The notes: generated from the sequence alone by a model not told the origin. Positions 2,763 through 17,377 are shown, numbered from the stretch's first letter. The stretch is 64,000 nt of DNA from an uncultured virus (IMG/VR IMGVR_UViG_3300023176_005768) (IMGVR_UViG_3300023176_005768); one strand, 5' to 3'. Program-made: numbers and translations.

Positions 2763-2971
2763 CGAATTCGTGTCGCACAGAAGCACTTGCTATTCCTATA
2801 TAATAGCCGCCGCAGAACCATTGTTTCTAAAAGAAGCCGCAAAACAGGTGGCTTTTCGCCTCACTCTCGCGAAAATCGCCCGAGACCTCTTCCTGGAAGA
2901 ATGATTCCGTTCCGCCAGGCTGTTCGCCAAAGCGGAGCGCGTCACATTCCCGAACAAAGGAAGTTACACTT

Positions 2972-3202
2972 ATGTGGTCATCATCATTTTGGAAGGCGTC
3001 AGCGGAGCGAGCGATTAAGACATTCGCGCAGACTCTCGTTGCTCTCGTTGGCACCGACGCTGCTGATGTTCTAACGATCAACATTACAGACGCGGTGCAG
3101 GCTTCGGTCGTCGCCGCCGTTCTCTCTGTGCTCACGTCGCTAGCGTCATCGACGCGCGGCAATCCTGGCCCAAGCCTCTCGAACGAGTCCACAGGCAGCT
3201 GA
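2972..3202 (+). CDS. Holin, phage r1t-like
   Basis: FWKASAERAIKTFAQT...AAVLSVLTS signature typical of actinophage r1t-type holins. Confidence 0.85.
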   Translation: MWSSSFWKASAERAIKTFAQTLVALVGTDAADVLTINITDAVQASVVAAVLSVLTSLASSTRGNPGPSLSNESTGS

Positions 3203-3224
3203 AGTAGGTTATAGTTCACAGTTC

Positions 3225-3596
3225 ATGAGCGATAACTCACAACCAAAGAAGAAGGCGACCCCTTCGAAGAAGACACCGTCGAAATCAACGCCCGCGAAAA
3301 AGAAGGCTCAGGCCTCGGGGAGTTCGAGTGCGCAGACGGGTGCTCCTAAGAAGAAAGCTCCGGCGAAGAAAGCCGCAGCGAAAAAGCCGCCTGTAAAGAA
3401 GTCAGTGGCGAAGAAGGTCGATCCGATCGTCGAGGACATCCGGCCCGCTGATACAGAAATTCCGCAGACGGATCAAGTTCCTGTATCAGTTCCGGCCTCG
3501 GCGCCAGCTCCCGAGCAGACGGCTCCTGCCGTCGAGAATCCGAGAATGAAGAATCTCGGTTTTTGGGCTCGGGTGAAATATCGACTTTCACGGTAG
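3225..3596 (+). CDS. Lys/Ala/Pro-rich, histone-like basic protein
   Basis: Repeated PAKK/PSKK units in the N-terminal half. Confidence 0.65.
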   Translation: MSDNSQPKKKATPSKKTPSKSTPAKKKAQASGSSSAQTGAPKKKAPAKKAAAKKPPVKKSVAKKVDPIVEDIRPADTEIPQTDQVPVSVPASAPAPEQTAPAVENPRMKNLGFWARVKYRLSR

Positions 3597-3613
3597 CTCG
3601 CTACTCGCTCGAG

Positions 3614-3654
3614 GGGTCCGTCGGTAGTTGCCCTCTCCCCGCCCGGCGGACCCC
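3614..3654 (+). terminator. GC-rich 3' hairpin, probable terminator
   Basis: GGGGTCCGTCGG...CCGGCGGACCCC just after stop codon 3596; no strong U-tract. Confidence 0.5.
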
Positions 3655-3683
3655 TCACACAACTCAATCTCGGAATTCTTCTC

Positions 3684-4589
3684 ATGGCGATAGAAAAATT
3701 TGATGACGATCTCGCAGTAGAGCGCCCAGACGTTCACGTTGATGATCCCATCAATATGCGCCCTGATCTGAGTGAACTCGGAATTCACGAGGTCGAGCGT
3801 GGAGTTTGCGAGGACAATTACGTAAATCGTTCTACTCTTCGCCGCGCGCGAATGGGATGGGACCCAGTTTACGCATCGAACGGAGTTCCGACAGGTTTAA
3901 TTCAGGCGCGCAGTCCCGAAATGGATCGAGCGCGCAGAGTTCTTTCTCTTACTGAGAAGCGCCCAATCCTCGTTGAGCCGGATATCTTGAACAGTGATTA
4001 CGTCACTGGTTACGATCTCTTAGCCGAGGAGGCGGCAGATCACATCGTTCCTCCCTGGGTCATTGGCGCGACTCGAAACTATCTGAAAGAGCAGGAGGCT
4101 GGCGGTCCGCCGTCCGCGAAAAGAAAGCCGGCCGCTCTTCCAACTCGTTGTCGCGCGATCAAGGACGACGGTATTCGATGCATGATGTGGAGCTCGGGAC
4201 GCCCGAAGGATGACGGTTACTGCCGTATTCATCTCGGCTCGATCTCGAGAAAACCCGGCGAGGACGTCGAACGTGCGCGCGCAAAATTGACTCAGGCCGC
4301 TCCGTACGCTGTCGATGTTCTTGAAGAACTCATGTCCGAGGCAGCGTCCGAGCCGGTGCGCCTCAAGGCGTCAACCGAAATCCTCGATCGCGCCGGCGTT
4401 CGTGGTGGTGTCGAGTTTGACGCGCGTGTAGAAGTTACCGATGGACGTTCCGCAGCAGATATAGTCAACGAACGTCTGGAGAGACTCGCCAAAAATGCGA
4501 TCGACGTCGCATCGAGGCTCGCGTCAGACGGAATTGGTTTACCAGAAGCAAGTGACGAGACAAATGACGATTCCGAAGCACAGGAGTAG
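3684..4589 (+). CDS. Zn-finger plus helical domain protein, possibly small terminase-like
   Basis: RCRAIKDDGIRC...YCRIH motif, then ARAKL..AAPYAVDVLEELM...VRLKASTEILDRAG, a pattern seen in phage small-terminase-like proteins. Confidence 0.5.
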   Translation: MAIEKFDDDLAVERPDVHVDDPINMRPDLSELGIHEVERGVCEDNYVNRSTLRRARMGWDPVYASNGVPTGLIQARSPEMDRARRVLSLTEKRPILVEPDILNSDYVTGYDLLAEEAADHIVPPWVIGATRNYLKEQEAGGPPSAKRKPAALPTRCRAIKDDGIRCMMWSSGRPKDDGYCRIHLGSISRKPGEDVERARAKLTQAAPYAVDVLEELMSEAASEPVRLKASTEILDRAGVRGGVEFDARVEVTDGRSAADIVNERLERLAKNAIDVASRLASDGIGLPEASDETNDDSEAQE

Positions 4590-4594
4590 ACGGA

Positions 4595-4807
4595 ATGAGC
4601 AAAGAAGAAGTCTCGAAGCTTGCGCAGATCTTAGCAGACCGGCTGAAAGAAGACGTTGATCTATGTCGAACAAGAGAAGAGACGATTCGCGTTTCGGCTC
4701 GCGCAAACGAGGCACAACTTCTTCTTCAGGGTCTGAATCAGATGTTCGACGTGACGTCCGGCCTGGAGCTGGAAGATCTGCAGACGGACTCGTCTCCGAG
4801 TGTCTGA
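4595..4807 (+). CDS. Hypothetical helical protein
   Basis: AGGAG RBS upstream; overlaps the 5' end of the next ORF. Confidence 0.5.
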   Translation: MSKEEVSKLAQILADRLKEDVDLCRTREETIRVSARANEAQLLLQGLNQMFDVTSGLELEDLQTDSSPSV

Positions 4808-5490
4808 AGTACGCTGACTTCAAGGTCAGGCCTGGTGGAGAGAACTCGTTTAGCAGACGGGTTGGTTATTTCGGTCACGACATTCCGTGGGACGGCGCGT
4901 TCATTGACTGCGTAGCGTACGACGCCGGCGTTGACGTTCCATCGTGCGTGTACACAGGTTCCGGCCTGGCCGAGTTTTCTCATAGCAGACGGCTCTATAT
5001 TTCACCTGTTGCTGGAGATATCGTCTTTTATCCGTTTTCTGCGCGCGTAAGTTCGCGTTTTCAGGCTCCGCACTGCGGGATCGTTGTTCAGGTGCTCAAA
5101 GACGACAAGTTCGTGGCCTGCGAAGGCGATGTCGAGAACTCAGTTCAATTAATAGAACGCTGGACGCGCGAAACAATCGGTTTTGGGCGCCCAAATTTCA
5201 ATGTCCGGCCTGGGCGGACTAAAAATGCAGACGGGCACCTTCCGAAGCCTGTAGTGTCGATCGCTCGAATTCAAGCAGGCGCGTTCGCCGATATCTATAA
5301 CCTCCAGCGGGCACTCGAAATCGTCTCCGATCTGAGGTACCACCGAAACGGCGTGTACGACGAGTATACTCGAGCCGGCTACGCTCGATGGCAGCGCCAA
5401 ATCGGATACGTTGGACCCGACGCGACTGGTTTTCCGGATCCCGCGAGTTTAACTCGACTCGGTGACCGAACAAAAATATTCTGTACGTAG
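4663..5490 (+). CDS. CHAP-like amidase domain plus C-terminal peptidoglycan-binding-like domain (endolysin-like; start uncertain)
   Basis: PW(D)GAFI, AGDIVFY, HCGIV, ACEGD; C-terminal LQRAL...G.YD..TRA.YARWQRQIG...ATG.P...SL..L. Confidence 0.65.
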   Translation: MSNKRRDDSRFGSRKRGTTSSSGSESDVRRDVRPGAGRSADGLVSECLKYADFKVRPGGENSFSRRVGYFGHDIPWDGAFIDCVAYDAGVDVPSCVYTGSGLAEFSHSRRLYISPVAGDIVFYPFSARVSSRFQAPHCGIVVQVLKDDKFVACEGDVENSVQLIERWTRETIGFGRPNFNVRPGRTKNADGHLPKPVVSIARIQAGAFADIYNLQRALEIVSDLRYHRNGVYDEYTRAGYARWQRQIGYVGPDATGFPDPASLTRLGDRTKIFCT

Positions 5491-5579
5491 CGTCTTCGAA
5501 TTCTAAAGCCGTATATAATGATGTCACCGGTTCAACCGATCCGGCACTCACAACGACATCTACCTCACGGAGATACGAA

Positions 5580-6203
5580 ATGACACAGTCAAACCCGACC
5601 GTTACGGTCGACACCATCAAGCAGCTTCGTATGAACTCACCGCAGTTCGACGAGTTCATTAACCGTCGCGGACGAGGCGCAGTCTCTGGTCCGAGCTTCG
5701 AGCTCGAGATCTACGAGCTTCTCTGCACGGCGACCGAGCCAGCCACCATGAACGAGATCTTCTCGGCGTTTAACGCTGGTCGCTCGTCGGAGCGCAAGCG
5801 CCGGTCAAACTCGGTCCGCATCGCTCTCACCAGTCTCTGCCAGGTTGGCCTGCTGCACTGCCGAGAGCAGACGGACGGCGAGCGCGAGTTCCTCGGCATG
5901 ACCAAGGGACGCACTCCTCTTCTGTATTGGACCTCGGCTGCGATTCCGATTCGCGTCAAGAAGAGCGCGTTTCCCGGCGTCGAGATCGCTCCGCTGCCAG
6001 ACGTGCTGAGCAAGAGCAAGGCGCGCAAGCGCAATGCCCTCCGGAAGGCTCGCAACACGAGCCGGCCCGCTAAGGCCTCGTCCTCGCAGACGGGCACTAA
6101 GCTGAGCGCCATCGAGCGCCATGACATCGCTATCAAGGAGATGCAGGGACGTATCTCGTCGTTGGAGGCCGAGCTGAAGCGCATTCAGCAGATCCTGCGC
6201 TGA
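5580..6203 (+). CDS. Probable winged-helix DNA-binding protein with C-terminal coiled coil
   Basis: IYELL...PATMNEI...SVRIALTSLCQVGLL pattern; basic linker; heptad-like C-terminus. Confidence 0.55.
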   Translation: MTQSNPTVTVDTIKQLRMNSPQFDEFINRRGRGAVSGPSFELEIYELLCTATEPATMNEIFSAFNAGRSSERKRRSNSVRIALTSLCQVGLLHCREQTDGEREFLGMTKGRTPLLYWTSAAIPIRVKKSAFPGVEIAPLPDVLSKSKARKRNALRKARNTSRPAKASSSQTGTKLSAIERHDIAIKEMQGRISSLEAELKRIQQILR

Positions 6204-6221
6204 TGTGATAGCGTTGAGGTC

Positions 6222-6488
6222 GTGAACATCTACGACCTCTTCTTGTTGGAGACCCCGGATGACGTTGCTGCCTGCTCGTTGTCCGGGGTCTTCGACATTG
6301 GTCCACACGAAATCGAGTGTGAGAACTGCCGACTCGCTGTCGGAATATGGGACAACGTGTTCATTCCGTTCTCAGTTCTCGTCGACCACGAGAGTCAGCC
6401 AATGACTCAGGCGTACCCAGTCTGCATCGACTGCATCGCGCCAGCGATTATGCCGGGCCTCTGGTTCTCGACTCGGAAGGAATTCTAA
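6222..6488 (+). CDS. Small zinc-ribbon protein
   Basis: CENC...CIDC; its stop TAA lies within the next promoter motif. Confidence 0.6.
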   Translation: MNIYDLFLLETPDDVAACSLSGVFDIGPHEIECENCRLAVGIWDNVFIPFSVLVDHESQPMTQAYPVCIDCIAPAIMPGLWFSTRKEF

Positions 6489-6536
6489 AGAAGATACCAT
6501 TGGTCTCACCCCATACCAACGACGAAAGGACACACC

Positions 6537-6926
6537 ATGGGCGACAGAGCAGTTATCCAATTCATGGAGACCCCCGCAGACGAGACCCCTGTGAATCTCT
6601 ACATGCACTGGGGCGGTCACTCGCGCTACGAGGCGCTGGCTGGCGCGCTCGAGAAGGCGAGGCCTCGCTGGACTGACCCCTCGTACGCCACCCGTATCTG
6701 CATCTCGCAGATCATTGGCACCGGCTGGAACGAGGAGACTGGCTTCGGCATCTCCGCCGGCGATCTCAACTACGTCTCACCTGACTACGATGACATCCCA
6801 TGCGTCGTCTGGAGCACGCGGCAGGTCTACATCAACAAGACCAACTCCGTTGAGGTCATCGACTTCGAGAAGTTCATCGAGCTCTGCGACTTCAGCGAGC
6901 TGCACTCCTGGGCTTCGGTTCGATAA
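6537..6926 (+). CDS. Hypothetical phage protein
   Basis: GAAAGGA RBS; MGDRAVI...LYMHWGG. Confidence 0.75.
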   Translation: MGDRAVIQFMETPADETPVNLYMHWGGHSRYEALAGALEKARPRWTDPSYATRICISQIIGTGWNEETGFGISAGDLNYVSPDYDDIPCVVWSTRQVYINKTNSVEVIDFEKFIELCDFSELHSWASVR

Positions 6927-6977
6927 TCTAAAGAAGTTATAATTGAACTCGTAAGCCACTACAACGAAAGGACACCA

Positions 6978-7358
6978 ATGTTCAAAAGATTCAATGGAGT
7001 CGCGGAGGGGATCCTCCCCTACGGACAAGGCTATCCCAAGTGGAACCCGATGGAGCCTCTCGAGCATCCGTTCGGTCCCGGGTACATGTCCGACAGCATC
7101 GCTGTCGTGCTGAAGCGCGTCGATCAGCCTCGTAAGGCAGCAGCCACTCGAGTGATCGTTGGCGCCGGCAGCGAGATGTACGAAGGCTGGACGATCGGAA
7201 ACGTCTGGAAGCTTCGCCACGATCAGACAGGCGCCATTCTCGGCACCTACGAGGTTGTCGGTGAGGTGACCTACGCCGAAGACGAAGACGAGCTCGCGGC
7301 AGTGCGCGACGCGATCGGCGTGACTGACATGAAGCTCAAGGTCTCTTGCTTCAAGTGA
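6978..7358 (+). CDS. Hypothetical phage protein
   Basis: Promoter motif plus ACGAAAGGAC RBS. Confidence 0.75.
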   Translation: MFKRFNGVAEGILPYGQGYPKWNPMEPLEHPFGPGYMSDSIAVVLKRVDQPRKAAATRVIVGAGSEMYEGWTIGNVWKLRHDQTGAILGTYEVVGEVTYAEDEDELAAVRDAIGVTDMKLKVSCFK

Positions 7359-7412
7359 GTTTCTAAAGAAAGTATAATGAAACTGCAAGCCACAACGACG
7401 AAAGGACATGCA

Positions 7413-7748
7413 ATGGCAAGCACCACAATGACCCAGACCACCACGACCACGACCACCGAGGTCAAGCAGGTCGCTGACCTTCCGACCTCAGCCGAGGATC
7501 TCATCCGAACCTTCAACAACACGAAGGCGACGATCAAGCTCCTCCAGGCCGAGAAGGAGAACGCCGAGAAGGCGCTCCGCGAGCTTCTCGGTGACGCCGA
7601 GGTTGGCACCATCAATGGCGTGGAGCGAGTCAAGATCTCGCACCGCAACATGAGCAAGATCGATCGCGAGGCCCTCAAGGCCGCGTGGCCGGAGGCGTAC
7701 GAGGCGACTCTTCTCGAGTCCTCGTACACCGTGCTCACCACCAAGTGA
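7413..7748 (+). CDS. Hypothetical coiled-coil protein
   Basis: Promoter motif plus RBS; strongly biased codon usage; followed by a hairpin at 7758-7797. Confidence 0.8.
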   Translation: MASTTMTQTTTTTTTEVKQVADLPTSAEDLIRTFNNTKATIKLLQAEKENAEKALRELLGDAEVGTINGVERVKISHRNMSKIDREALKAAWPEAYEATLLESSYTVLTTK

Positions 7749-7870
7749 TCGCGTCCGAGGGCCGCAGCTCCTCCCCCCTGAGCAGTTGCGGCTCTCGGCG
7801 CTCACCGTCAGTCTGCTTTCTAAAGAAAGTATAATGACAACATCCACTACATCCACTACGAAAGGACACC

Positions 7871-8383
7871 ATGACTACCACATTCGATAATCGAAAGCCG
7901 ATCGCTCAGGCGGTCTATCTCGAGTTCATCAACGATCGCCGCGGCGCTGTCGCGCAGTACTTGTTCATGCCAAGCGTGGAGAACAAGTTCACTGGCACGC
8001 CTGCGACTGGCGTCTACAAGCAGACGCGCGCCATGGCGTTTCGCCGCACGATCAGCACCGCGCAGCCGCGCAGGCAGTGGAAGACTAGCACTGCGTTCGA
8101 CGTCTACGGCCAGTGGCACCAGGACAAGATCGACCACTCGAGCCTCAGCGACGACGAGCTCCGTGGGACGACCATGCTCAACATTCTTCAGTACCTCTGC
8201 TTCTCTCCGCTTAGCCGGTTCGTTTCCTCGGGCTTCACTCTTCGCACGCCTCCGATCGTCATCGAGATCACCGAAGAGGACGCCGCAGCTGCGATCAATG
8301 GGAAGACCCCGTACAAGGCTCTGGGCCGCGTCCACAAGGTCCGTTCTTCTCGCAAGCTCGATAAGAATCTTCTGGCTTTCTAA
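7871..8383 (+). CDS. Hypothetical phage protein
   Basis: Promoter motif plus ACGAAAGGAC RBS; stop overlaps the next motif. Confidence 0.75.
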   Translation: MTTTFDNRKPIAQAVYLEFINDRRGAVAQYLFMPSVENKFTGTPATGVYKQTRAMAFRRTISTAQPRRQWKTSTAFDVYGQWHQDKIDHSSLSDDELRGTTMLNILQYLCFSPLSRFVSSGFTLRTPPIVIEITEEDAAAAINGKTPYKALGRVHKVRSSRKLDKNLLAF

Positions 8384-8436
8384 AGAAGATACAATACTAC
8401 GTACCCACTACAACCCACTACAACGCAAGGACTGAA

Positions 8437-9468
8437 ATGACTATCACCAACAAGGTTGCCGTTACTGCCGGCTTGGCCGAGCACAAAGAGATCATCGATG
8501 GGCTCGACCCGTCGTTGTGGTCGACGCTGGAGAGCTTCGTGATGCAGAGCATCTTCGGAGATCACCAACTCGCGATGCAAGGTATTGTTGATCCGGCTGG
8601 GCGCGTGAACGCTCGCAAGGCAGCGCTGCCGAGCACTACCAAGGAGTCGGTGATGAAAGAAGTCGACACCCTCGATGGCGAGAAGAGCTTCGATCGTCCC
8701 AACGGCGATAAGTACTTCTCCCGCTCGTGGGGCGATCACAACGACGTCGCGGTTCTGCGCCGTGCTCGTGAGCTCGGGCACTACGCTCTGCTCTACGGTT
8801 CGCCCGGCTGCGGCAAGACTGCGCTCGTCGAGGCCGCGTTCGGCGATGACCTCTACACGCTCCTGGGTTCCGGAGACACCGAGGTCGCTGACCTGGTCGG
8901 CGGCTACGTCCAGACTCCTAGCGGCGCGTTCCTTTGGGAAGATGGGCCGCTGGTCAAGGCCGCCGAGGAGGGCAAGCCGTTCCTCATCGACGAGGTTGGG
9001 CTGATCGACACCAAGGTGATGTCGATCGTCTACGGTCTTATGGATGGGCGCCGCGAGTACACCGTGACTGCCAACCCAGAGCGTGGCACCGTCAAGGCCG
9101 CCGATGGCTTCTACGTTGTCGCAGCGACCAACCCCAACGCGCCCGGCGTGCGTCTCTCCGAGGCGCTTCTCTCCCGGTTCACGCTCCAGGTCGAGATGAC
9201 CACTGACTGGTCTCTCGCTCGCAAGCTCGGTGTGCCGACGCAGGCCGTGACTGCGGCGCAGAACCTCAGCAAGAAGTTCACCGCGAACGAGGTGTCATGG
9301 GCTCCGCAGATGCGCGAGCTCCTGGCGTTCCGAGACATCAACTCGGAGTTCGGCACCAAGTTCGCGATCTCGAACATTCTCGCAGCTGCCCCCGAACTCG
9401 ATCGGCCCGTCGTCGCAGACGTGCTGTCCCGGGTGTACGGCGAGACGTGCATGCCGGCCAAGATCTAA
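8437..9468 (+). CDS. MoxR/CbbQ/CobS-type AAA+ ATPase
   Basis: Walker A GSPGCGKT, DLVGGY, W.DGPL..A, Walker B FLIDE, AATNP, LSEALLSRF. Confidence 0.92.
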   Translation: MTITNKVAVTAGLAEHKEIIDGLDPSLWSTLESFVMQSIFGDHQLAMQGIVDPAGRVNARKAALPSTTKESVMKEVDTLDGEKSFDRPNGDKYFSRSWGDHNDVAVLRRARELGHYALLYGSPGCGKTALVEAAFGDDLYTLLGSGDTEVADLVGGYVQTPSGAFLWEDGPLVKAAEEGKPFLIDEVGLIDTKVMSIVYGLMDGRREYTVTANPERGTVKAADGFYVVAATNPNAPGVRLSEALLSRFTLQVEMTTDWSLARKLGVPTQAVTAAQNLSKKFTANEVSWAPQMRELLAFRDINSEFGTKFAISNILAAAPELDRPVVADVLSRVYGETCMPAKI

Positions 9469-9476
9469 GATCGCCG

Positions 9477-9511
9477 TGGGTCGGGCTAGCGTAGTGGGTA
9501 GCCCGGCCCAC
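9477..9511 (+). terminator. GC-rich hairpin after the AAA gene
   Basis: GTGGGTCGGGCTA...TAGCCCGGCCCAC. Confidence 0.55.
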
Positions 9512-9580
9512 TGGCACTTTCTAAAGACATTATAATAGCCACTACAACGAAGGACAGCACCACAACGAAAGGACATCAAC

Positions 9581-11425
9581 GTGGGCAATCTCAAGAATGC
9601 GGCTCGTCGTGAGCCAGTGTCAGTTACATACCCGGAGTGGCTACGCGTCAGCGGCAGCATCGGAGAGCTCGCTCGTAGCTGGTCGGGCCGCCTCGAGATC
9701 GTGGCGTTCGCCGGCCCGACTGCCGGCCTCGGAAACCCCGCGTGCTTCTCGCCGAACACCAGCGAGCTCGAGATCAACACCGAGACTTGCTTCGGCGCAG
9801 ACGTCAATCCCGAGGACATCGACGATCTGACCAAGATCGGTACTCAAGCCGAGTGGCCTCGCGCGATCGGCGCGATCTTCCACGAGGCAATGCACGCCCG
9901 CTACTCCCTCTGGAGTCTGCCGCGGGCTGCTGAAGATCTTTCTCCTCGCGAGTTCACTGCGCTCCTTCTTCTTGAGGAGGGCCGCATCGAGCGTCATGGC
10001 CTCGACGTCTGGCCGCGCATGTCCGGGTTCCTCCGCCGCATGGCTGTTGACGTTGTCGTCAACAATCCGGAAGAGATTCACGACAGCAGCGACACCGTGT
10101 TCGCGGGCAACGTCGCTCTTCTGACACTCGCCCGTGTCGACGCCGGATCGCTCGAGTGGTCTGACGTTGAGCGCATTCGCGAGCTTCTCGTCGAGCGCTT
10201 CGGCGAAGCCAAGTTGGCAGAGCTCCGCGAGCTCTGGCGCGCAGCGCAGGAGCACTCCCGGCACCACGACGCCACAGACATGTACCCCATCGCGCGCCGC
10301 TGGGTCGAGCTCATCAACGAGATCGCTGTAGAGAATGGCGAGCCTGAGCCTGGAGATTCTGAGCCGGGCGAAGGTTCCGAAGGCGCGCCCGGTGAGTCCG
10401 GCGAGAGCTCGGGCTCGAGCGAGAGCACGAGCGGCACGCCGTCATCTTCATCGTCGTTCGCCGACGAGATGCAGGAAGCGCTCGAGGACGCCGCCGAGGA
10501 GTCGAAGATCGGCTCCTATGATGACATCACCGAAGCCGAGCAGCTCGCCGACTACGAGGAAGAGGCGCAGGCCAGGGCTAGGGACTCGCGTGATCGCCGC
10601 AGCGCAATGGACGCGGCCAGCAAGGTGTTCGGCTCCGGAACGTCAGAGGTGCATGGCACGAAGTCGAACAGCGTGCTTCAAGAGACTCGCCCGGCGTCTT
10701 CCGACGAGCGTCGCGCTGCTGTCAAGGTGGCGCAGCTTCTCGAGAAGGCGAAGTACCGCGATCGCAGCGAGACTGAGATCACGGACGTCGTGCCTCCGGG
10801 ACGACTTCGCAGTCGCGCCGCAGTCCAGGCCGCAGCTCTCAAGAGCAAGGGTGTCATGGCGCAGGTCGAGCCGTGGCGACGCACTGCTCGCAAGCACACT
10901 GACGATCCGACGCTCAACATCGGGATCATGGTCGACATCAGTGGCTCGATGGGTGAGGCCATGGCGCCAATGGCGAGCACCGCGTGGCTGTTGTCAGAGG
11001 CCGCTCGTCGCGTGCAGGCTCGAGCCGCAATGGTCTACTATGGCAACGACGTGTTCGCCACGCTCAAGCCCGGCCAGCACCTCGATCAGGTGCGAGTCTG
11101 GACAGCACGAGACATGACCGAGAAGTTCAATGATGCGTTCAAGGCGCTGAACGGGGCGCTCGATCTGACGCACGGCTCAGGCGCACGGTTGCTCGTGATC
11201 GTTAGCGACGGCGAGTACACTTTCACCGAGACCAATGCGGCCAAGGCGGCGATCGCCGAGTGCGAGCGCACGGGTGTCGGAGTGCTCTGGATCTCGACCG
11301 GCTGGGGCCCTCGCGGCATCACGGCAGGCACGGCGGCTCAGGTCACTCCCCTGAAGACGGACGTAGTCGAGCTTGCCGACTCGATCGGCAGAGCAGCAGC
11401 CGCGGCACTCGCCTCGGCCTGCTAA
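9581..11425 (+). CDS. CobT-like partner: HEXXH metallopeptidase-like domain, acidic linker, VWA domain
   Basis: FHEAMHA...LEEGRIE; MIDAS DISGSM; LVIVSDG; adjacent to the MoxR ATPase. Confidence 0.88.
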   Translation: MGNLKNAARREPVSVTYPEWLRVSGSIGELARSWSGRLEIVAFAGPTAGLGNPACFSPNTSELEINTETCFGADVNPEDIDDLTKIGTQAEWPRAIGAIFHEAMHARYSLWSLPRAAEDLSPREFTALLLLEEGRIERHGLDVWPRMSGFLRRMAVDVVVNNPEEIHDSSDTVFAGNVALLTLARVDAGSLEWSDVERIRELLVERFGEAKLAELRELWRAAQEHSRHHDATDMYPIARRWVELINEIAVENGEPEPGDSEPGEGSEGAPGESGESSGSSESTSGTPSSSSSFADEMQEALEDAAEESKIGSYDDITEAEQLADYEEEAQARARDSRDRRSAMDAASKVFGSGTSEVHGTKSNSVLQETRPASSDERRAAVKVAQLLEKAKYRDRSETEITDVVPPGRLRSRAAVQAAALKSKGVMAQVEPWRRTARKHTDDPTLNIGIMVDISGSMGEAMAPMASTAWLLSEAARRVQARAAMVYYGNDVFATLKPGQHLDQVRVWTARDMTEKFNDAFKALNGALDLTHGSGARLLVIVSDGEYTFTETNAAKAAIAECERTGVGVLWISTGWGPRGITAGTAAQVTPLKTDVVELADSIGRAAAAALASAC

Positions 11426-11635
11426 GGTCACGGAGTGCAGACGGGTAGTCCTTTCCCCGTCGCCTCCGTCGTGTTGGCCCGGGGTGGAGTCGTCCTTTCC
11501 TCCCCCGGGTCGACACAACTTCAGGCCTGCCCCCTAGGCATTAATGCAGACGGGCACCTCTCGAGAGTGTTCCGGCCCGCCATAGGCCCCGACGGTGCAG
11601 ACGGACTCGAATCTAAAGAGGTTATAATAGCCAAC

Positions 11636-11758
11636 ATGGAAGAGACAATCTGCGAGATGTGCGAGGCACTAATCTTCGCGATCGACTACGAGGACAATCG
11701 GGCGATTTGGTCGCATCTCGACGAGTCGAACTGCGACGATCCGGTACCCGCGTTCTGA
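11636..11758 (+). CDS. Leaderless 40-aa Cys/His microprotein
   Basis: ATG 7 nt after TATAAT; CEMC...WSH...C. Confidence 0.65.
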   Translation: MEETICEMCEALIFAIDYEDNRAIWSHLDESNCDDPVPAF

Positions 11759-11777
11759 AGACAGTAAGGTACTGAGC

Positions 11778-11936
11778 ATGGGACTATTCACCGGGTACCT
11801 GCTGTACCGGGCAGGCAAGAAGCGAGCTCAGCGACAGCTCGACGACTGGCTCGAGCTCAACGAGATCTGTGACAACTGTGGCCACGAGAAGATGTACCAC
11901 TCGGCGTTCATGGACAGATGCCCTGAGCCTGAGTGA
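11778..11936 (+). CDS. 52-aa microprotein with CxxC..H..H..C
   Basis: Manual translation MGLFTGYLLYRAGKKRAQ...CDNCGHEKMYH...C; stop abuts the next motif. Confidence 0.55.
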   Translation: MGLFTGYLLYRAGKKRAQRQLDDWLELNEICDNCGHEKMYHSAFMDRCPEPE

Positions 11937-11995
11937 ATTCTAAAGAAGTTATAATGACATCGTCAGCCCAACCCACTACGAAAGGATACACAACG

Positions 11996-12247
11996 ATGTT
12001 CACCCCAGAAGAGATCAAGGACGCTCTCCGAATCATCGCCAAGCGCGATGGACGTGCGACCCGCGAGGACGCGATCGAGTACCTCTATCAGATGGAGCTG
12101 GATTATTCCGACCAGCTCGCCGACCAGCTCGCCGAGATGCGAGCCGAGTTCGGAATGAGCTGGGTCTGCGGCGGCGGTAGCGCCGAGGACGTTAGCGCAG
12201 CGTGGTCAATGCATCGCGACGACTACATCGCCGGCCGGATCGGCTGA
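11996..12247 (+). CDS. Hypothetical protein
   Basis: Promoter motif plus ACGAAAGGA RBS. Confidence 0.7.
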   Translation: MFTPEEIKDALRIIAKRDGRATREDAIEYLYQMELDYSDQLADQLAEMRAEFGMSWVCGGGSAEDVSAAWSMHRDDYIAGRIG

Positions 12248-12301
12248 TTCTAAAGAAGTTATAATAGTCTACGTCAGCCCAACCCACTACGAAAGGACAT
12301 C

Positions 12302-12757
12302 ATGACAATCGCGACTTACAAGTGGCACGACGACAGAGTCCTCGAGATCTCGTCAGACGACTTCGATCTTCGGATCCGCAAGCGCGTCTGGGAGCCCCGC
12401 TACGAGCGCTACTCGAGCTTCGTCAGCGCGCCTCGGATCTACGTGCAGGTCGGAGACTTCAATCTTCTCGAGAACCTGGAGAATCGCCGCCGTCGGCCGT
12501 ACACCGAGTTCCGCAAGTACATCGAGCGGGTGGTGTGGCCGACCCTCGGCTGGCAGGAGACTGCTCCGAAGCTCGGATGGCGCCAGAACGCAGGGTGCAG
12601 CATGTGCCCCTGCTCGCCTGGATTCGTCGTCCAAGTCGAGGGCTGGCGACCAGTCGAGTCGATCGGCGCGCGCTTCGATATGTGGCTCGACATCAAGACG
12701 CCCGACTTCGTCAGCGTCGACGAGCGCAAGCCCGCGATGGTGCCGGTTCTCATCTGA
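12302..12757 (+). CDS. Hypothetical protein, paralog of 20548..21105
   Basis: Shared ENLENR.RRP.T and W.Q..GC.MCPCSPGF motifs. Confidence 0.8.
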   Translation: MTIATYKWHDDRVLEISSDDFDLRIRKRVWEPRYERYSSFVSAPRIYVQVGDFNLLENLENRRRRPYTEFRKYIERVVWPTLGWQETAPKLGWRQNAGCSMCPCSPGFVVQVEGWRPVESIGARFDMWLDIKTPDFVSVDERKPAMVPVLI

Positions 12758-12983
12758 GAGCCGGCGCCTCCGGCGGAGTTCTAAAGAAGTTATAATTGAC
12801 CACATGGAAGGAGACACAGTGACAATGAAAGATGCAGTGAAGGCGATCCTCGAGTCGCTCATGGAGGATGTCAACGTCGTCGAAGATGGCGAGTCGTTGG
12901 AGCCCGCCGTGATGCTCGCGATCGGCGAGCTCTACTCGGCCCTCGATCAGATCCGTCTCGCCGAGAGAGTCTAAGGAGCGGCC

Positions 12984-13163
12984 ATGGACTTCGACCTCGA
13001 GATGCAGTACGAAGATCGCACGCACATCGGAGACGACTACGAGCCCGGCGACGAGTTCGACTGGGATCGGAACGACTCGAGACAGTACTGCGTGCATGGG
13101 ACGTTCATCGGATCCTGGTGGGGTCCGGACATCCTCTGCGCCGCGTGCGAGTTCGGCGACTGA
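12984..13163 (+). CDS. 59-aa acidic zinc-binding microprotein
   Basis: AAGGAG RBS; YCVHGT...LCAAC; stop abuts the motif. Confidence 0.6.
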   Translation: MDFDLEMQYEDRTHIGDDYEPGDEFDWDRNDSRQYCVHGTFIGSWWGPDILCAACEFGD

Positions 13164-13221
13164 TTCTAAAGAAGTTACAATGATACTGTCAGCAACCACG
13201 CTGGCACGACGAAAGGACACC

Positions 13222-13575
13222 ATGGAAACTCTGACCAGAACCGCAGACGCGACCTTCACGAAGATCCTCGAGTTCATCGACGAGATCAACAGTCGCCCAG
13301 AGAACGCATGCGGCTTCGCGCAGCGTGTCTACGAGACTGATGGCGGCCGCAAGTACGTTCGCGTGACCATGCGGTACATCCGAGACGATGGCCAGCACGA
13401 GGGTGGCTCGGTCCACATGTTCATCGGCATGGCCGAGGGCATCTACGGAGACATCTACAAGCCGGCCAGCTACAAGGCGCCGGCGTTGAATGGAGCACGC
13501 TACAACCTCTTCGACGACTGGGATCAGATCCTGGAAGTCTGGGACTGGGCTGGCGGCTGGCTCTACAAGCGGTGA
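13222..13575 (+). CDS. Hypothetical phage protein
   Basis: Motif plus RBS; GRKYVRV...SVHMFI...GDIYKPASYKAPA; followed by a hairpin at 13579-13619. Confidence 0.8.
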   Translation: METLTRTADATFTKILEFIDEINSRPENACGFAQRVYETDGGRKYVRVTMRYIRDDGQHEGGSVHMFIGMAEGIYGDIYKPASYKAPALNGARYNLFDDWDQILEVWDWAGGWLYKR

Positions 13576-13671
13576 TCGCGCCGGGGTGGTCGGCTTGGGC
13601 TGGCCGGCCACCCCTGGCGATTCTAAAGAAGATACAATAGTATCTACAAGCCCACAACGAAAGGACGAAGG

Positions 13672-14010
13672 ATGCGGGTGCGAGTCTACTACAACCTTCA
13701 CAAGCGCACGTTCAGCATTCAACATCACATCGATGGCAGATGGCTGGTCAGAGACTACGCCGACGAGGTGCGTCTACGAGACGTCGTGTTCAAGGTCAGC
13801 GAGGCTGGCAGGCGCCGAGTCCTCGCGGAGGGCCGCAAGAATGTGCACGCGTTCGTCATCGGAACCCTGGTCGACGATCTGCCAGACACTCCCACGAAGG
13901 TGATGTACAACCCGCGGACGCAGAGCACCTTCATCGAGAAGGAGACGCAGCGGCCGGTGCATAGCGCGGAGTACGCCAGGCTCATCAACAAGCAAGTCTT
14001 GGTCGCGTGA
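13672..14010 (+). CDS. Hypothetical phage protein
   Basis: Motif plus RBS; VYYNLHK..FS...VSEAGR.RVL.E.RKNVHAF. Confidence 0.8.
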   Translation: MRVRVYYNLHKRTFSIQHHIDGRWLVRDYADEVRLRDVVFKVSEAGRRRVLAEGRKNVHAFVIGTLVDDLPDTPTKVMYNPRTQSTFIEKETQRPVHSAEYARLINKQVLVA

Positions 14011-14062
14011 GATTCTAAAGAAGATACAATTACCTCATCAGCTTACAACGAAAGGACACAGC

Positions 14063-14290
14063 ATGAACATCGGAGAACTCAAGACTCTCGTCGACGAGGC
14101 GATCGCTCGCGGCATCGACCCAGAGTGCACTGTAGTTCTGGACGCGCAGGCTCTCAGGAACTCGTGGGACTGGCCGATCCTCAAGAAGGTGCACGACCCA
14201 AGCGTGAACTCAGACTACCTGTGGTTCACTCTTGTTCCTGGCGAGGAAGCGGACAATCGCTTCAGCCCTGGGCACGTCAACGACGACTGA
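14063..14290 (+). CDS. Hypothetical protein
   Basis: Motif plus ACGAAAGGAC RBS. Confidence 0.7.
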   Translation: MNIGELKTLVDEAIARGIDPECTVVLDAQALRNSWDWPILKKVHDPSVNSDYLWFTLVPGEEADNRFSPGHVNDD

Positions 14291-14341
14291 TTCTAAAGAA
14301 GATACAATAGATCATACCAACTACAACGAAAGGACAGCAAG

Positions 14342-14863
14342 ATGGGAATGGACGTTTACGGGCACAGCCCGAAGACTGAAGAGGGCGAGTACTTCCGGGC
14401 GAACGTCTGGGGATGGCGTCCGATCTGGGACTACTGCGTGCAGATGCACCCGCACCTGGTCGGCGATGAGCCAGAGTACGGCCACTACAACGACGGCTAC
14501 GGCCTCGATGAGGAGGGCGCTACGCGGCTTGGTGAGGCGATCGAGCAAGATCTTCGAGACGGGCGTGCACACGCCTACATCGAGTCTCGGAACAAGTACC
14601 TCGCGAAGCTTGAGCGCCCTGAGTGCGACTGGTGCGATAAGACGGGAATCCGCACGGACAAGGTCGGCGTGGACATGGGCATGCCCGAGAAAGCTCTCGA
14701 CGCGGTGACGGCTATCATGGTTGGGCGTACGCACGGATGGTGCAACGGCTGCAACGGCGAGGGACGTCAGGATCACCCGGAAACTCTCTACTCTCTCGAG
14801 ATCGGTGACCTCGACGAGTTCGCGGTGTTTCTGATCAACAGTGGAGGCTTCGGCATCCACTGA
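14342..14863 (+). CDS. Hypothetical protein with CxxC...CxxC insert, paralog of 25151..25669
   Basis: Shared YG..P...GE.F..NVW.W..(I/L)W.YC, GWCN.C.GEGR and EFA.FL..SGGF.I. Confidence 0.8.
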   Translation: MGMDVYGHSPKTEEGEYFRANVWGWRPIWDYCVQMHPHLVGDEPEYGHYNDGYGLDEEGATRLGEAIEQDLRDGRAHAYIESRNKYLAKLERPECDWCDKTGIRTDKVGVDMGMPEKALDAVTAIMVGRTHGWCNGCNGEGRQDHPETLYSLEIGDLDEFAVFLINSGGFGIH

Positions 14864-14965
14864 GAGAGTTCAGGCCTGCCTAAGGCTGCGCAGTGCAGAC
14901 GGACAGCTTCTAAAGAAGATACAATAGACAAGGCAACGAAGAACCAAACTCGAAAGGACGAAAAG

Positions 14966-15160
14966 ATGAGGACGTACTTTGCAATGGACGGAAACTACGG
15001 AGACGCAGAGGAGTTTCTCGTAGTCGACACGTCGATGTGGGATGACGACGACTGGGCCGCGATCGAGTTCGCGACGAGCAGCGAGCGACTCGCGATCGCG
15101 CGACAGATCGACGATGGCGAGTACAACCCGAACCAGCTCGAGCTCCCGCTCGAATCCTGA
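14966..15160 (+). CDS. Acidic microprotein
   Basis: Motif plus RBS; followed by a hairpin at 15167-15206. Confidence 0.7.
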   Translation: MRTYFAMDGNYGDAEEFLVVDTSMWDDDDWAAIEFATSSERLAIARQIDDGEYNPNQLELPLES

Positions 15161-15273
15161 GATCTTGCCGGCCCAGGGGGGTTACTCCTTTCCCCCTCTG
15201 GGCCGGCTGCTCATCATTCTAAAGATGTTATAATGATCTCGTCAGCCCGACCAACGACGAAAGGAAGCAGCCC

Positions 15274-15420
15274 ATGGCATACAAGCCCTCCACCCGTCTA
15301 CACGAGGTCTTCAACCCGACCTTCGGATACATCTGCTTCACCGGCAGCCAGAGCGCCTGCCTGAGGTACGTGAGCCGCAAGAACAACCCGAACCTCATCG
15401 TCCAGCCGGCAGCCCGCTGA
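15274..15420 (+). CDS. 48-aa microprotein
   Basis: Motif plus ACGAAAGGA RBS; MAYKPSTRLHEVFNPTFGYIC... Confidence 0.65.
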   Translation: MAYKPSTRLHEVFNPTFGYICFTGSQSACLRYVSRKNNPNLIVQPAAR

Positions 15421-15488
15421 TCGCGGGCGCCGGCCGCGAATTCTAAAGAAGTTATAATAGAATCAAGCCCACTACGAAAGGACAGCAG

Positions 15489-15701
15489 ATGGTTTACATG
15501 TCACTCCCAGGGAGCCGCCAGATCCTCGGCTCGAATAAGTGCCGCATCCTCATCGACGCATGGCGAATGCGTTCGATCCGCAGAGCGTACCGCCGTATGC
15601 GGCTCCAAGGGATGAGCTCGATCGAAGCCCGCTACATGGTCTTCAATCTCCTGGACGCGGGCCGATCAGGCAAGTTCGCCTCAGATTCGCTCCCCGCCTG
15701 A
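15489..15701 (+). CDS. Basic microprotein
   Basis: Motif plus RBS. Confidence 0.65.
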   Translation: MVYMSLPGSRQILGSNKCRILIDAWRMRSIRRAYRRMRLQGMSSIEARYMVFNLLDAGRSGKFASDSLPA

Positions 15702-15755
15702 TCGTGATTCTAAAGAAGTTATAATGATATCAAGCCCACGACGAAAGGACACAGA

Positions 15756-15986
15756 ATGACAGTAGTGACCAACACGCCAGACTTGCTCGAGAAGCTCAGG
15801 ATGATCTCCGCGATCCAGGCTCTCCGCGTCGAGATGCATGGCATGAAGATGACCCGAGGCTTCAGCGCCCTCAAGTTCGTCAAGGAGACGTACGGAATCA
15901 CCGCCGGCACCAAGGCGAAGGCCTTCGAGCAGATGCTCGAGCTCTACGAGGAGACCTACGGAGAGGAGTACGGCGGGGCGCGGTGA
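15756..15986 (+). CDS. Hypothetical protein
   Basis: Motif plus RBS. Confidence 0.7.
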   Translation: MTVVTNTPDLLEKLRMISAIQALRVEMHGMKMTRGFSALKFVKETYGITAGTKAKAFEQMLELYEETYGEEYGGAR

Positions 15987-16026
15987 GCGCCCCCACTCTT
16001 CTTCTAAAGAAGTTATAATAGTCTAC

Positions 16027-16260
16027 GTGGAAAGGAATAACGACGAGATGGACGCGATGGAAAAGATCGAGGTGCTCGACAGATTCGAGACGTTTCAAGA
16101 GGGGCTGATGGACAGACTTCAAGATCGGCTCATGGCGAATGACGTGAGCGAAGTCGCCGACATGGAGAGGCTCCTCGAGCGGCTCGCGGAAGAGATCGAG
16201 AAGCGGCGAAGCGAGATCGAGCAGGAGATCGACATCGCGGTCTCCGACTTCTTCGACTGA
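16027..16260 (+). CDS. Acidic helical protein (start uncertain)
   Basis: GTG 7 nt after TATAAT; stop abuts the next motif. Confidence 0.65.
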   Translation: MERNNDEMDAMEKIEVLDRFETFQEGLMDRLQDRLMANDVSEVADMERLLERLAEEIEKRRSEIEQEIDIAVSDFFD

Positions 16261-16304
16261 GCTTCTAAAGAAGTTATAATAAAACCATGAAAGGACACAC
16301 GGAC

Positions 16305-16604
16305 ATGAAGTCAGTATTCGACACGGTCAAGGTCGCGGACGCGAGCTTTCACCGAAACGGAGTCGCCGGCGAGGGATTCACCGTACGGCTCATCGACGAC
16401 ACGTATGACGGCGAGCCCGTGCGGCTGGTCGCCATCACGTTCGATAGCGACCCGATGCGGACGGCGGTCTTGGACGTCGATCTTCTCGCGGATGGCGTCA
16501 TCGCGTTCGGCGAGAACTCGTGGCGCGGAGATCACTACGCTCTTGCTCTCGGTCTGACGAAGTCAGGCGAGCGCGCGTCGATGGCGTTTGGCTCGAGAGA
16601 GTGA
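16305..16604 (+). CDS. Hypothetical phage protein
   Basis: Motif plus GAAAGGAC RBS; HRNGVAGEGF...NSWRGDHY. Confidence 0.75.
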   Translation: MKSVFDTVKVADASFHRNGVAGEGFTVRLIDDTYDGEPVRLVAITFDSDPMRTAVLDVDLLADGVIAFGENSWRGDHYALALGLTKSGERASMAFGSRE

Positions 16605-16682
16605 CGCCGGCGAGCGCACCGGCCCGCCTATAGGCGAGCTATGCAGACGGACTGTCTTTACTAAAGAAAGTATAATAGACTC

Positions 16683-16952: not shown

Positions 16953-17040
16953 TGTCTCTGCCCACTCTCCCTAGAGTTCTAAAGAAGTTATAATGGATCT
17001 TACCAGCCAGGGTGGCTGGGGAACGACGAAAGGACATGGA

Positions 17041-17286
17041 ATGACCAAGTGGTGTCTCCTCAAGGAGTCCGATGGTGCGCGCGGCGTGGCCGGCAAGCGC
17101 AAGATCTACGAGATCACCATCACCGACGATCACGAGGTGATCTTCGAGTGGGGTCGCGCTGAGAAGAAGGAGCGGCAGGGCACGAAGGTGCAGCGGTTCT
17201 TCTCGGACCAGGCGGCCCGCCGAGCGGCCGCTGAGCAGCTCTTCGCCAAGCAGGCCAAGGGCTACGTCCTGGCCTACACGGTCTGA
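17041..17286 (+). CDS. WGR-domain-like protein
   Basis: K.YEI...V.FEWGR...G.K...F....A...A......K.AKGY pattern. Confidence 0.75.
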   Translation: MTKWCLLKESDGARGVAGKRKIYEITITDDHEVIFEWGRAEKKERQGTKVQRFFSDQAARRAAAEQLFAKQAKGYVLAYTV

Positions 17287-17377
17287 GCCGCCGGCAAGCC
17301 GGCTGGGGCGCAAGCCTCGGCCGGCAAGCCGCCGGTTGGCAGCGGTAACCGAGTTCTAAAGAAGTTATAATGATCTC

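Follow-up and report, generated by a model that had tools for sequence, protein, structure and literature searches.

In the Cluster A mycobacteriophages, represented by the repressors of L5 (gp71) and TipsytheTRex, more than 20 asymmetric 13-mers lie in promoters and short intergenic spaces, the orientation of the sites follows transcription and their reversal abolishes repression; the solved Cluster A repressor is monomeric, with a pair of DNA-binding domains independent of each other, the L5 gp71-type repressor has a helix-turn-helix and a stoperator domain, and immune specificities in the cluster are described as evolving (all from the passages of PMC9283540 used here). In this article, I will discuss a repeat for which these operators and stoperators appear, by analogy, to be the closest described counterpart. 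It is built around the 8-mer GCAGACGG and stands in 64,000 nucleotides of an uncultured virus (IMG/VR IMGVR_UViG_3300023176_005768), a stretch that is called the window below. Each unit has a left box containing GGCC and a right box containing the 8-mer, and this two-box word is a real control signal, written on the gene-sense strand and at fixed places even within genes; its sequence constraint, strict orientation, placement and conservation are directly observed.

The original prediction, made from the DNA sequence of the window, had proposed an oriented cis-signal with its constraint on nucleotides. That much is supported, and the signal is conserved in related phages; the processes that it listed (RNA antitermination or protein loading, a single-stranded DNA hairpin, and DNA entry, replication or packaging) have not been narrowed to one, and the Cluster A analogue was not among them. 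The window is part of a large phage in which every gene after about 1 kb lies on the + strand. Its nearest GenBank record is the metagenome-assembled Actinomycetia phage DSL-LC01, whose large terminase (TerL) is 84% identical and which its description calls lysogenic on the basis of prediction (PMC10611076), and the window phage is an uncultured actinobacterial phage of the same kinship.

An oriented two-box word

A recount finds GCAGACGG 16 times in the 64-kb window: 14 copies on the + strand between 3332 and 16650, all at their predicted starts (3332, 3464, 3515, 4780, 4853, 4985, 5227, 5867, 6086, 11437, 11546, 11597, 14895 and 16643), and two on the - strand, at 43795 and 61477. No + copy lies past 16650, where the last one ends, which agrees with the earlier statement that there is none beyond 16.7 kb; the reverse copies are indeed partnerless, but there are two of them and not only the one near 61477. 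All 14 + copies have the expected GGCC 20-24 nucleotides (nt) upstream, measured start to start, at spacings of 20 (n=3), 21 (n=3), 22 (n=6), 23 (n=1) and 24 (n=1), and neither - copy has it, a strand bias of 14 partnered + copies vs 0 partnered - copies. Dinucleotide shuffles of the window contain 3.29 +/- 1.57 copies of the 8-mer on average and 7 at most (both strands summed), and 0 of 100 reach 16.

Among GGCC-partnered + sites, 14 match the 8-mer exactly, 0 have one mismatch and 22 have two, and on the - strand the corresponding numbers are 0, 2 and 12; the word is all-or-none in the window, because partnered + sites with one mismatch are missing and those with two are at background level. 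The relaxed pattern GGCCYG-N15-24-RACGG recovers 12 of the 14 units from the 64 kb and nothing else on either strand, and the backwards-read control yields one match. From 30 instances in the window and its relatives, the consensus of the left box is (g)T-C-(C/A)-GGCC-(T/C)-G and that of the right box is GCAGACGG-(G/A)-(C/T), and the units have no flanking repeats and mutually unrelated spacers.

Nine copies lie in open reading frames (ORFs), in all three codon phases, where the 8-mer reads as QT five times (3332, 3464, 3515, 5867 and 6086), ADG twice (4780 and 5227) and SRR twice (4853 and 4985). This earlier count of nine holds; a mechanical ORF, 11435-11758, takes in two more copies (11546 and 11597), and its upstream part is probably non-coding because the promoter at 11613 has an ATG 7 nt after its -10 box. 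When the codons of the 28 ORFs lying between 2.9 and 17 kb are shuffled synonymously, 1.42 +/- 1.06 copies result, with a maximum of 6, and 0 of 2000 shuffles reach the nine observed, which upholds the claim that the constraint is on nucleotides rather than protein, as does the change of frame at orthologous sites described below.

The word was judged not to belong to a known family, and a search of the whole window against Rfam with E up to 1 returned tRNAs and chance matches only, none of them for the unit. A literature search with the 8-mer gave primer-type matches only, among the matches listed, and the words 'promoter' and 'repeat' are both absent from the text of the DSL-LC01 paper. A scan of viral contigs with CGGCCYG-N12-18-GCAGACGG gave one match per contig among the matches listed and did not single out relatives. 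The complementarity of GACGGG to the 1400 region of 16S rRNA was judged a coincidence, and contig ends close to units (G005 and G003 begin 17-50 nt before one, L306 stops 30 nt after one) occur at about chance level.

Conservation in related phages

The family was sampled through 73 related loci, some of them near-identical, that were retrieved with the DUF5763 zinc-ribbon protein of the window (3684..4589, + strand) as the query; this protein is better conserved than any other of the region (52-100% identity in the 73 loci), and there is no unit inside its gene. The same copies as in the window are found in the near-identical contigs G001 and G005, and four further lineages (L303; G002 together with G003 and G004; L309; L310) hold the exact 8-mer with its partner, always in the sense of the genes. 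Counted in the gene direction and opposite to it, the 8-mer occurs 14/1 times in G001, 11/3 in G002 (the GGCC partner being present for 10 of the 11 in gene direction), 10/1 in G004, 6/1 in G003 and 5/0 in G005, and the forward/reverse counts are 8/0 in L303, 6/0 in L309, a genome of 47% G+C, and 9/0 in L310. Lineages sharing the exact 8-mer diverge as far as 85% identity in TerL, 40% in the endolysin and 21-35% in the product of the following gene, and three endolysin-gene units of the window have counterparts at orthologous codons in L303 and G002, and in part in L309 and L310.

Conservation in related phages had been proposed as a check, and the element is found across the family, co-oriented with the genes. 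Over the 73 loci, GGCCYG-N19-21-ACGG occurs 84 times forward and 5 times in reverse (near-identical loci included), and the reverse cases of the relaxed pattern that were checked are antisense in + ORFs and without the flanking consensus. The whole 129-kb record of DSL-LC01 has 9 forward and 2 reverse matches to the relaxed form GGCCYG-N16-24-NGACGG(T/A), with 8 in the endolysin gene and the next one, and G007, a 117-kb contig, has 10 forward and 0 reverse matches to the relaxed pattern (backwards-read control 1/0); relatives (G002, G007 and DSL-LC01) thus carry 9-11 copies each. In every well-sampled lineage, a cluster of 4-8 units within about 1.3 kb occupies the endolysin gene and the next gene, in different frames; measured from where the DUF5763 gene begins, it lies 1.2-2.5 kb downstream (window 4760-6093; G002 32125-33329; DSL-LC01 21864-23147; G007 16954-18669; L309 11318-12490).

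The left box is constant across the family and the right box depends on the lineage, and lineages without the exact 8-mer keep GGCCYG-N-(G/A)ACGG. The right box is ATGACGGG in L304-306 and G007, TTGACGGGCA in L311-314, NCAGACGGGC in L315-318, NAGACGGT in L317 and L364 and, on thin evidence, AACGGC.. in the most distant lineages. Distant relatives (L304/G007, L312, L336, L328 and L335) are also enriched in other one-strand octamers (ACGGCGAG and GCGGCGTG ten times each, ACGGCTTG eight times and GACGGGCA seven times); only some of these have a GGCCYG partner, and they could be right boxes that have degenerated or signals of their own.

At one orthologous site, DSL-LC01 has AAG ACG G (K-T) where the window has AGA CGG (R-R), and since AGACGG is kept there one base out of frame, it is the nucleotides and not the residues that are conserved. 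The idea that the word is a coding by-product, or a small mobile insert without a function of its own, has next to nothing left to stand on. Left boxes do often code for the conserved residues RPG or SGLAE and right boxes for RR or QTG, and these residues are conserved in relatives too; however, the codon-shuffle null is exceeded (0/2000), the same word is found in three frames and in non-coding DNA, the nucleotides are kept where the frame differs between orthologous sites (in DSL-LC01, and in phases 0, 1 and 2 of the winged-helix gene introduced below), and a mobile insert is at odds with the missing flanking repeats and unrelated spacers.

Placement in genes and before promoters

The window has 37 CTAAAG-N4-TAYAAT sites (TTCTAAAGAAGTTATAAT-like), all on the + strand between 5503 and 26265 and one before nearly every small gene, which are followed either by a conserved leader ..ACGAAAGGAC.. 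(..CCACTACGAAAGGAC..ATG) or, in leaderless form, by an ATG 6-8 nt past the -10 box; their sequence suggests early or middle phage promoters for the host RNA polymerase. The word upstream of the -10 box varies by lineage (CTAAAG, CTGAGT, CTAGGG/CTATGG, CTAAGG) and the -10 box itself is constant. Separately, GC-rich runs of an 8-nt-period repeat at 17890-18320 (GCCGGCCG, GCCAGCC, CTGCCGGC; repeat family D9) flank the promoters at 17977 and 18332.

Five of the 14 window units are intergenic, of which three abut promoters, and nine lie in ORFs, and over 18 sources 44 of 68 units lie within ORFs. The intergenic units examined by eye are all between a stop codon and the next promoter, with none in a leader (window 5/5, G002 6/6, G007 5/5, L310 2/2), and they stand before promoters either singly or in tandems of two or three with a period of about 50 nt (window 11524/11574; L309; G007, where one pair and one trio begin 4 nt past the stop codon). 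The copies at 11597, 14895 and 16643, which had been described as sitting just upstream of the CTAAAG motif, end 7-10 nt before CTAAAG-N4-TAYAAT. Distances to the -10 box were measured for 12 promoter-adjacent units (three in the window, six in G002, two in G007 and L310 17189, leaving out L310 17298, which is 9 nt from TACAAT), and in 10 of them GACGGR ends 16-19 nt before the -10 box; the unit therefore covers the -35 region.

Along the window, in which all 14 units are on the + strand, units 1 (3311..3339, GGCCTC..GCAGACGG, spacing 21), 2 (3442..3471, spacing 22) and 3 (3494..3522, spacing 21) lie, with right boxes read as QT, in a Lys/Ala/Pro-rich, histone-H1-like ORF (3225..3596, +) that is lineage-specific (1/73 related loci) and follows the holin gene (2972..3202, +; phrog_443, E 4e-22). 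The endolysin-like ORF (4663..5490, +; phrog_9589, E 2.6e-9) carries units 4 to 7: unit 4 (4760..4787, spacing 20) codes for VRPG in its left box and ADG in its right box; unit 5 (4829..4860, spacing 24; RPGG..SRR) has its orthologous site in G002, L303 and L310, and also in DSL-LC01, where it is relaxed and one base out of frame; unit 6 (4963..4992, spacing 22; SGLAE..SRR) has its counterpart in G002, L303, L309, L304 and DSL-LC01; and unit 7 (5207..5234, spacing 20; RPGR..ADG) in G002, L303 and L310. Units 8 (5847..5874, spacing 20) and 9 (6064..6093, spacing 22) lie in ORF 5580-6203, the former in the sequence for the wing of a winged-helix domain (GLLHCREQTD) and the latter in that for a disordered linker, where it codes for RPAKASSSQTG.

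The remaining five units lie farther right. Unit 10 (11416..11444, spacing 21) overlaps the stop codon of a CobT-like ORF (9581-11425; the AAA and CobT-like genes together occupy 8437-11425), unit 11 (11524..11553, spacing 22) is intergenic and lies past a GC-rich hairpin at about 11470-11515, and unit 12 (11574..11604, spacing 23) lies 51 nt beyond unit 11 and stops 8 nt short of the promoter-like CTAAAG-N4-TATAAT at 11613..11628 (+). Unit 13 (14873..14902, spacing 22) is 10 nt past the stop codon of ORF 14342-14863 and 7 nt before the promoter-like CTAAAG-N4-TACAAT at 14910..14925 (+), and unit 14 (16621..16650, spacing 22) is 17 nt past the stop codon of ORF 16287-16604 and 10 nt before the promoter-like CTAAAG-N4-TATAAT at 16661..16676 (+).

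With such positions, one may ask whether the units are themselves a second promoter class, with the left box -35-like and the right box -10-like or at the start, for an alternative sigma factor (the sigma-like gene at 26331-26918) or a virion RNA polymerase. I consider this very improbable. The unit is bipartite and strictly oriented, its modal spacing of 22 is near the -35 to -10 distance, units stand in tandem with CTAAAG promoters and a sigma-like gene is present, but the spacing ranges over 20-24, the right box is GC-rich rather than A/T-rich, most copies (9/14) are deep in ORFs with up to four per gene, none stands before the late genes expected of a phage sigma factor (no copy being found beyond 16.7 kb), and no RNA polymerase domain was found in the 5188-amino-acid ORF at 38869-54435. 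That ORF has RNase T-type exonuclease, UvrD-type helicase and NUDIX parts, and its first approximately 1500 residues and most of its last 2188 (the NUDIX part excepted) are without a family match.

Other features of the window are the large terminase gene (31994-33415), a portal-like gene before the 5188-amino-acid ORF, a perfect 48-nt tandem duplication at 61142-61237 within ORF 60557-62590, and four tRNAs (Ile-TAT, Arg-TCT, Thr-TGT and Trp-CCA) at 2428-2763 and 21390-21462. The Arg-TCT tRNA reads AGA, the codon found where the right box reads as SRR, and a link between the two was judged coincidental.

A possible directional docking site

Three mechanism classes fit the sequence data, and I rank a DNA docking site first, as a tentative choice, an RNA-level element second, as a doubtful one, and a DNA-transaction signal third, as an unlikely one. 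The first would make the unit an asymmetric, stoperator-like docking site for a phage protein that acts one-way on rightward transcription, a possibility that I favor without regarding it as probable; its double-stranded DNA target, its effect on transcription and the identity of its reader are what I infer. The unit would be TTCMGGCCYG, a variable spacer of about 12-16 nt and GCAGACGGR, bound by a sequence-specific phage protein or, alternatively, by a protein with two flexibly linked reading heads, and it would be active in one orientation only relative to rightward transcription. Promoter-abutting copies, covering the -35 to -60 region, would serve as operators, and the copies after stop codons, together with the cluster in the endolysin and winged-helix genes, would act as polar blocks to elongating host RNA polymerase.

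This reading draws on the strict orientation seen in the window, the relatives and the 73 loci (84 vs 5), on the slot of the intergenic units between stop codon and promoter, their cover of the -35 region and their tandem arrays, on a right box that is invariant per lineage and different between lineages, as immune specificities in Cluster A likewise evolve according to the part of PMC9283540 used here, and on the presence within the cluster of a gene for a protein of predicted winged-helix, DNA-binding type. So far as that source goes, the Cluster A system and this one share many asymmetric copies per genome, orientation with transcription and a lineage-specific sequence, part of the copies here likewise stand at promoters and in gaps between genes, and the two-domain reader that was solved there offers a model for a two-box site. 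They differ in that the unit here extends over about 30-35 nt and consists of two boxes around a spacer of variable length, vs a contiguous 13-mer, and in that most copies, including the most conserved ones, lie in ORFs and are confined to about 13 kb, whereas those of Cluster A are genome-wide.

Several observations weigh against a docking site of this kind. Nine of the 14 copies, and the most conserved ones of the family, are intragenic, whereas the L5 stoperators are described in promoters and short intergenic spaces; the spacing range of 5 nt (20-24) is awkward for a rigid reader of duplex DNA; and a small excess of hairpins in intergenic spacers (36 units; best stem 4.39 vs 3.82, minimum free energy -4.86 vs -3.75 kcal/mol, the stems being unrelated to one another) is not needed by a duplex-DNA site. 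Ordinary GC-rich hairpins before other promoters in the window and DSL-LC01 end at the identical 16-19 nt from the -10 box, and thus the distance of the unit to the -10 box may reflect tight packing only. No repressor of the L5 gp71 type was named by Pfam and PHROGs scans of about 50 window proteins, scans that were not aimed at such a repressor. The direction of transcription is inseparable from the axis of the genome, because all genes of the region run one way.

Which protein would read the site is a matter of guesses from adjacency, and the candidates are the DUF5763 zinc-ribbon protein and the winged-helix protein. The latter (5580..6203, +) is predicted to consist of a winged helix (residues 2-121), a disordered basic linker and a C-terminal coiled coil, with an AlphaFold predicted local distance difference test score (pLDDT) of 81 overall and below 50 in linker residues 142-173. 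In VIA its model matches Fur 2xig_A at Z 9.2 (root-mean-square deviation 3.2, 88 aligned), 2fu4_B at 8.4 and TFE 1q1h_A at 8.2, the rest being MecI, MarR and PadR; every Foldseek E-value for the model is above 1e-3, and a PDB sequence search with the winged-helix family gave coiled-coil chance matches only. The linker sequence CGG CCC GCT AAG G.. CAG ACG GG, read as RPAK..QTG, is found once or twice in tandem and kept even at 25% identity, and DSL-LC01 and L304 have units at the same place of the linker in other frames, the units of this gene thus occurring in phases 0, 1 and 2. Of 10 lineages that bear the gene and in which the pattern was sought, 7 had 1-3 units in the linker-coding part, at irregular spacing.

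As a reader, the winged-helix protein makes a poor candidate, because it is variable where the word is invariant and is missing from some unit-bearing lineages. It is 54% identical between the window and L303 and only 21-35% identical between more distant lineages with the same GCAGACGG, its identity is no higher among GCAGACGG lineages than to lineages with another right box, and some lineages with units, such as L320 (6 forward, 0 reverse), have no detectable homologue; all this counts against the docking site too. Lineages with the gene have 2.6 forward units on average and those without it 1.1, where L302, which has the gene, is counted as without.

Origin iterons are a second system brought to mind by this gene. 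In lambda (O and ori) and SPP1 (gene 38 and oriL), they lie inside the initiator gene, in the part coding for a flexible linker. The likeness is in the repeated co-oriented sites in the linker-coding part (residues 142-173, RPAKASSSQTG) of the gene for a predicted DNA-binding protein; the difference is that the units here are not compact but extend to the endolysin gene and to 8-13 kb away, that conservation of the protein does not parallel that of the motif, and that there is neither an adjacent AT-rich unwinding region nor a link to replication genes.

Structure and RNA-level readings

The unit could instead act as RNA once transcribed: with the help of a protein it may terminate or attenuate transcription, or it may mark where the transcript is processed or decays, or belong to its 3' end, and it would in this way close transcription units that run rightward and hold down the mRNAs of the endolysin and winged-helix genes. 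I hold this to be doubtful, although several observations are in its favor. The units are on the sense strand only, and in intergenic regions they come right after stop codons and before the next promoter, never in a leader; since GC-rich hairpins before other promoters end at an equal distance, the units occupy the slot of terminator-like hairpins, and on the 3' side of the CobT-like gene units are found in the window and G002 in place of a long hairpin in DSL-LC01. Tandem copies would suit tandem terminators.

Folding speaks in part for the same reading. Intergenic copies have a weak tendency to form a small, variable spacer hairpin, the excess being that given above, and in the 70 ORF units there is almost none (best stem 4.06 vs 3.93). 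Pairing of GGCCY with an RGGYY that lies downstream of it is seen in 11 of 106 units vs about 3 expected, with C and T alternating opposite G, and segments holding units fold at -12.9 kcal/mol vs -9.3 kcal/mol for random segments of equal length (standard deviation 4.5). Taken as a general feature, the GGCCY/RGGYY mini-hairpin was rejected, being present in 11/106 units only.

The evidence on the other side begins with the lack of a conserved structure joining the boxes. The original prediction had seen flanks that often pair, suggesting a hairpin with a conserved internal loop, and this part of it fails: in the tested hairpin (CCG/CGG with flanks and CUG/CAG), 79.3% of cells are paired vs 77.0 +/- 1.1 in shuffles (21/500 reach it), the covariation score is 0.128 vs 0.107 in column shuffles (40/500 reach it), the defining pairs are nearly invariant and the outer pairs hold in 12-24 of 30 sequences. 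The C/A variants of the left box and the T/C variants of GGCCYG have no compensating change, and both the flank-closed hairpin and a P1/P2 version were dropped, with no support past the invariant bases. An RNA element also has against it the empty Rfam search (E up to 1), the lack of a consistent U-tract and the invariance of both boxes as sequence; a scan for the intrinsic-terminator consensus listed one of the 14 units (4843-4863), spacer stems average 4.4 pairs and no consistent T-run follows. Units 11 and 12, downstream of a strong hairpin, may be little transcribed.

Six RNA libraries contain parts of the window, and four of them (X14 and X16-X18) were examined. The deepest metatranscriptome contigs, at about 2850-4012, include the holin gene, the Lys-rich gene (X16 depth 15.1, X18 depth 11.4) and the start of the DUF5763 gene; they bridge units 1-3, which speaks against an RNA-level element, although such contigs tell only that the phage is present in RNA libraries and nothing of ends, strand or level, and may include DNA carry-over.

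Among described RNA signals, lambda nut and HK022 put are the likeness, being oriented cis-signals of early transcripts that combine a linear box with a small hairpin. The units differ in having no Rfam match, no conserved hairpin, and 9-14 copies per genome vs two, many of them in ORFs, and no N-like or Nus-related gene was identified.

The predicted genome end

The third mechanism class places the units in the leading, perhaps terminally repeated, part of the genome, as polar sites at which DNA is packaged, ejected, primed, nicked or protected at its end and which are read on one strand, possibly by the DUF5763 protein. I consider this unlikely, and it is again partly a matter of neighborhood. 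Seven Microbacterium phage records contain a DUF5763 homologue (36-39% identical over 84-93% of the query), one Arthrobacter phage record contains a partial one, and the homologue is gene 1 in every listed record (genes 1-2 in Pumpernickel). In Microbacterium phage Cece its start lies 62 nt in from the left end of the linear genome, and the record labels it terminase small subunit; gene 1 is followed, as in the window, by an endolysin gene and a long run of small + genes, and the opening 1200 nt of Cece are found again at 168435 of 186513, giving a direct terminal repeat of 18,079 bp that contains gene 1.

On the strength of this synteny with Cece gene 1, the packaged genome of the window phage would begin near 3.6 kb, and the unit-bearing region would be its leading part and perhaps a terminal repeat. 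The holin and Lys-rich genes would therefore come last, with holin and endolysin joined only in concatemeric or circular DNA, and the units would span 0.3 kb before to 13 kb after the predicted end at about 3.6 kb. In the whole records of DSL-LC01 and G007, units are confined to the 11-16 kb after the DUF5763 gene, with the cluster of 4-8 sites 1.2-2.5 kb from it, and this confinement, like the position of gene 1 near the left end within the Cece repeat, favors a signal for DNA transactions. Strand specificity and small hairpins would suit a single-stranded target.

Much in the same comparison goes the other way. The end is placed through distant cultured relatives that themselves lack the motif: in Cece it is absent (8 forward, 7 reverse; control 8/9), and no other prominent one-strand word was found in the Cece terminal repeat. 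Packaging and origin sites are normally compact, and set beside pac and cos sites the units flank the putative end gene, with none inside the DUF5763 gene, and are spread over 13 kb from an end that is itself placed by synteny. The small-terminase label is the annotation of one record, the DUF5763 protein has no terminase match in Pfam, PHROGs or NCBIfam, and both fold searches with it were empty (AlphaFold pLDDT 68.7, predicted template modelling score 0.33; Foldseek best E 0.59; VIA best Z 4.6, to a helical stretch only); a full-text search for DUF5763 returned no paper. A DNA-transaction signal also leaves unexplained the preference for the slot upstream of promoters.

The oriented octamers Chi and KOPS, which DNA motors read, and the strand-specific nick sites known from phages T5, phiKMV and tf each consist of one short word and are scattered along the genome. 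The units resemble them in having an invariant G-rich 8-mer on one strand, in all codon phases and near a predicted genome end, but they require a second box at a set distance (14/14) and prefer the slot upstream of promoters.

There is one more specific form of this idea, in which the units are strand-specific sites where a conserved, primase-like DUF5763 zinc-ribbon protein would bind one strand and begin or halt DNA synthesis, nicking or end processing by which the long terminal repeat is made or protected. The zinc ribbon is weakly similar to Pfam zf-primase (E 0.1, and E 0.005 for Cece gp1, both below the cut-off), and the (G/A)ACGG core is the complement of 5'-CCGT(C/T)-3', which has the form of T7- and T4-type primase sites (GTC and GTT, with primers starting AC); both resemblances count in favor of the broader third class as well. 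I would call this reading of the units improbable, and I give equally little credit to its corollary that the (G/A)ACGG core is the start of the product.

Concluding remarks

What sets the unit apart is the combination of two boxes and a free spacer, its long-term retention inside genes in changing frames, and a conserved cluster beside the predicted genome end. The signal has been held at the same codons, in differing frames, while the proteins fell to 40% identity or less, and this makes it a clear example of a non-coding signal laid over sequence that codes for protein; in the linker of a predicted DNA-binding protein it has gone so far as to fix a peptide (RPAK..QTG). If the units are stoperator-like, polar transcription blocks exist beyond the mycobacteriophages of Cluster A, and with a two-box architecture; if they are tied to the genome end, they open a way to asking how phages make and use their long terminal repeats, and the DUF5763 and terminal-repeat reading, if true, would add a new kind of cis-signal for long-terminal-repeat phages, written through genes. 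Considering the 73 related loci, the word represents a regulatory or DNA-handling system for a widespread group of large, uncultured actinobacterial phages of lakes and marshes, and the unit provides a practical sequence marker for this phage family and its early region.

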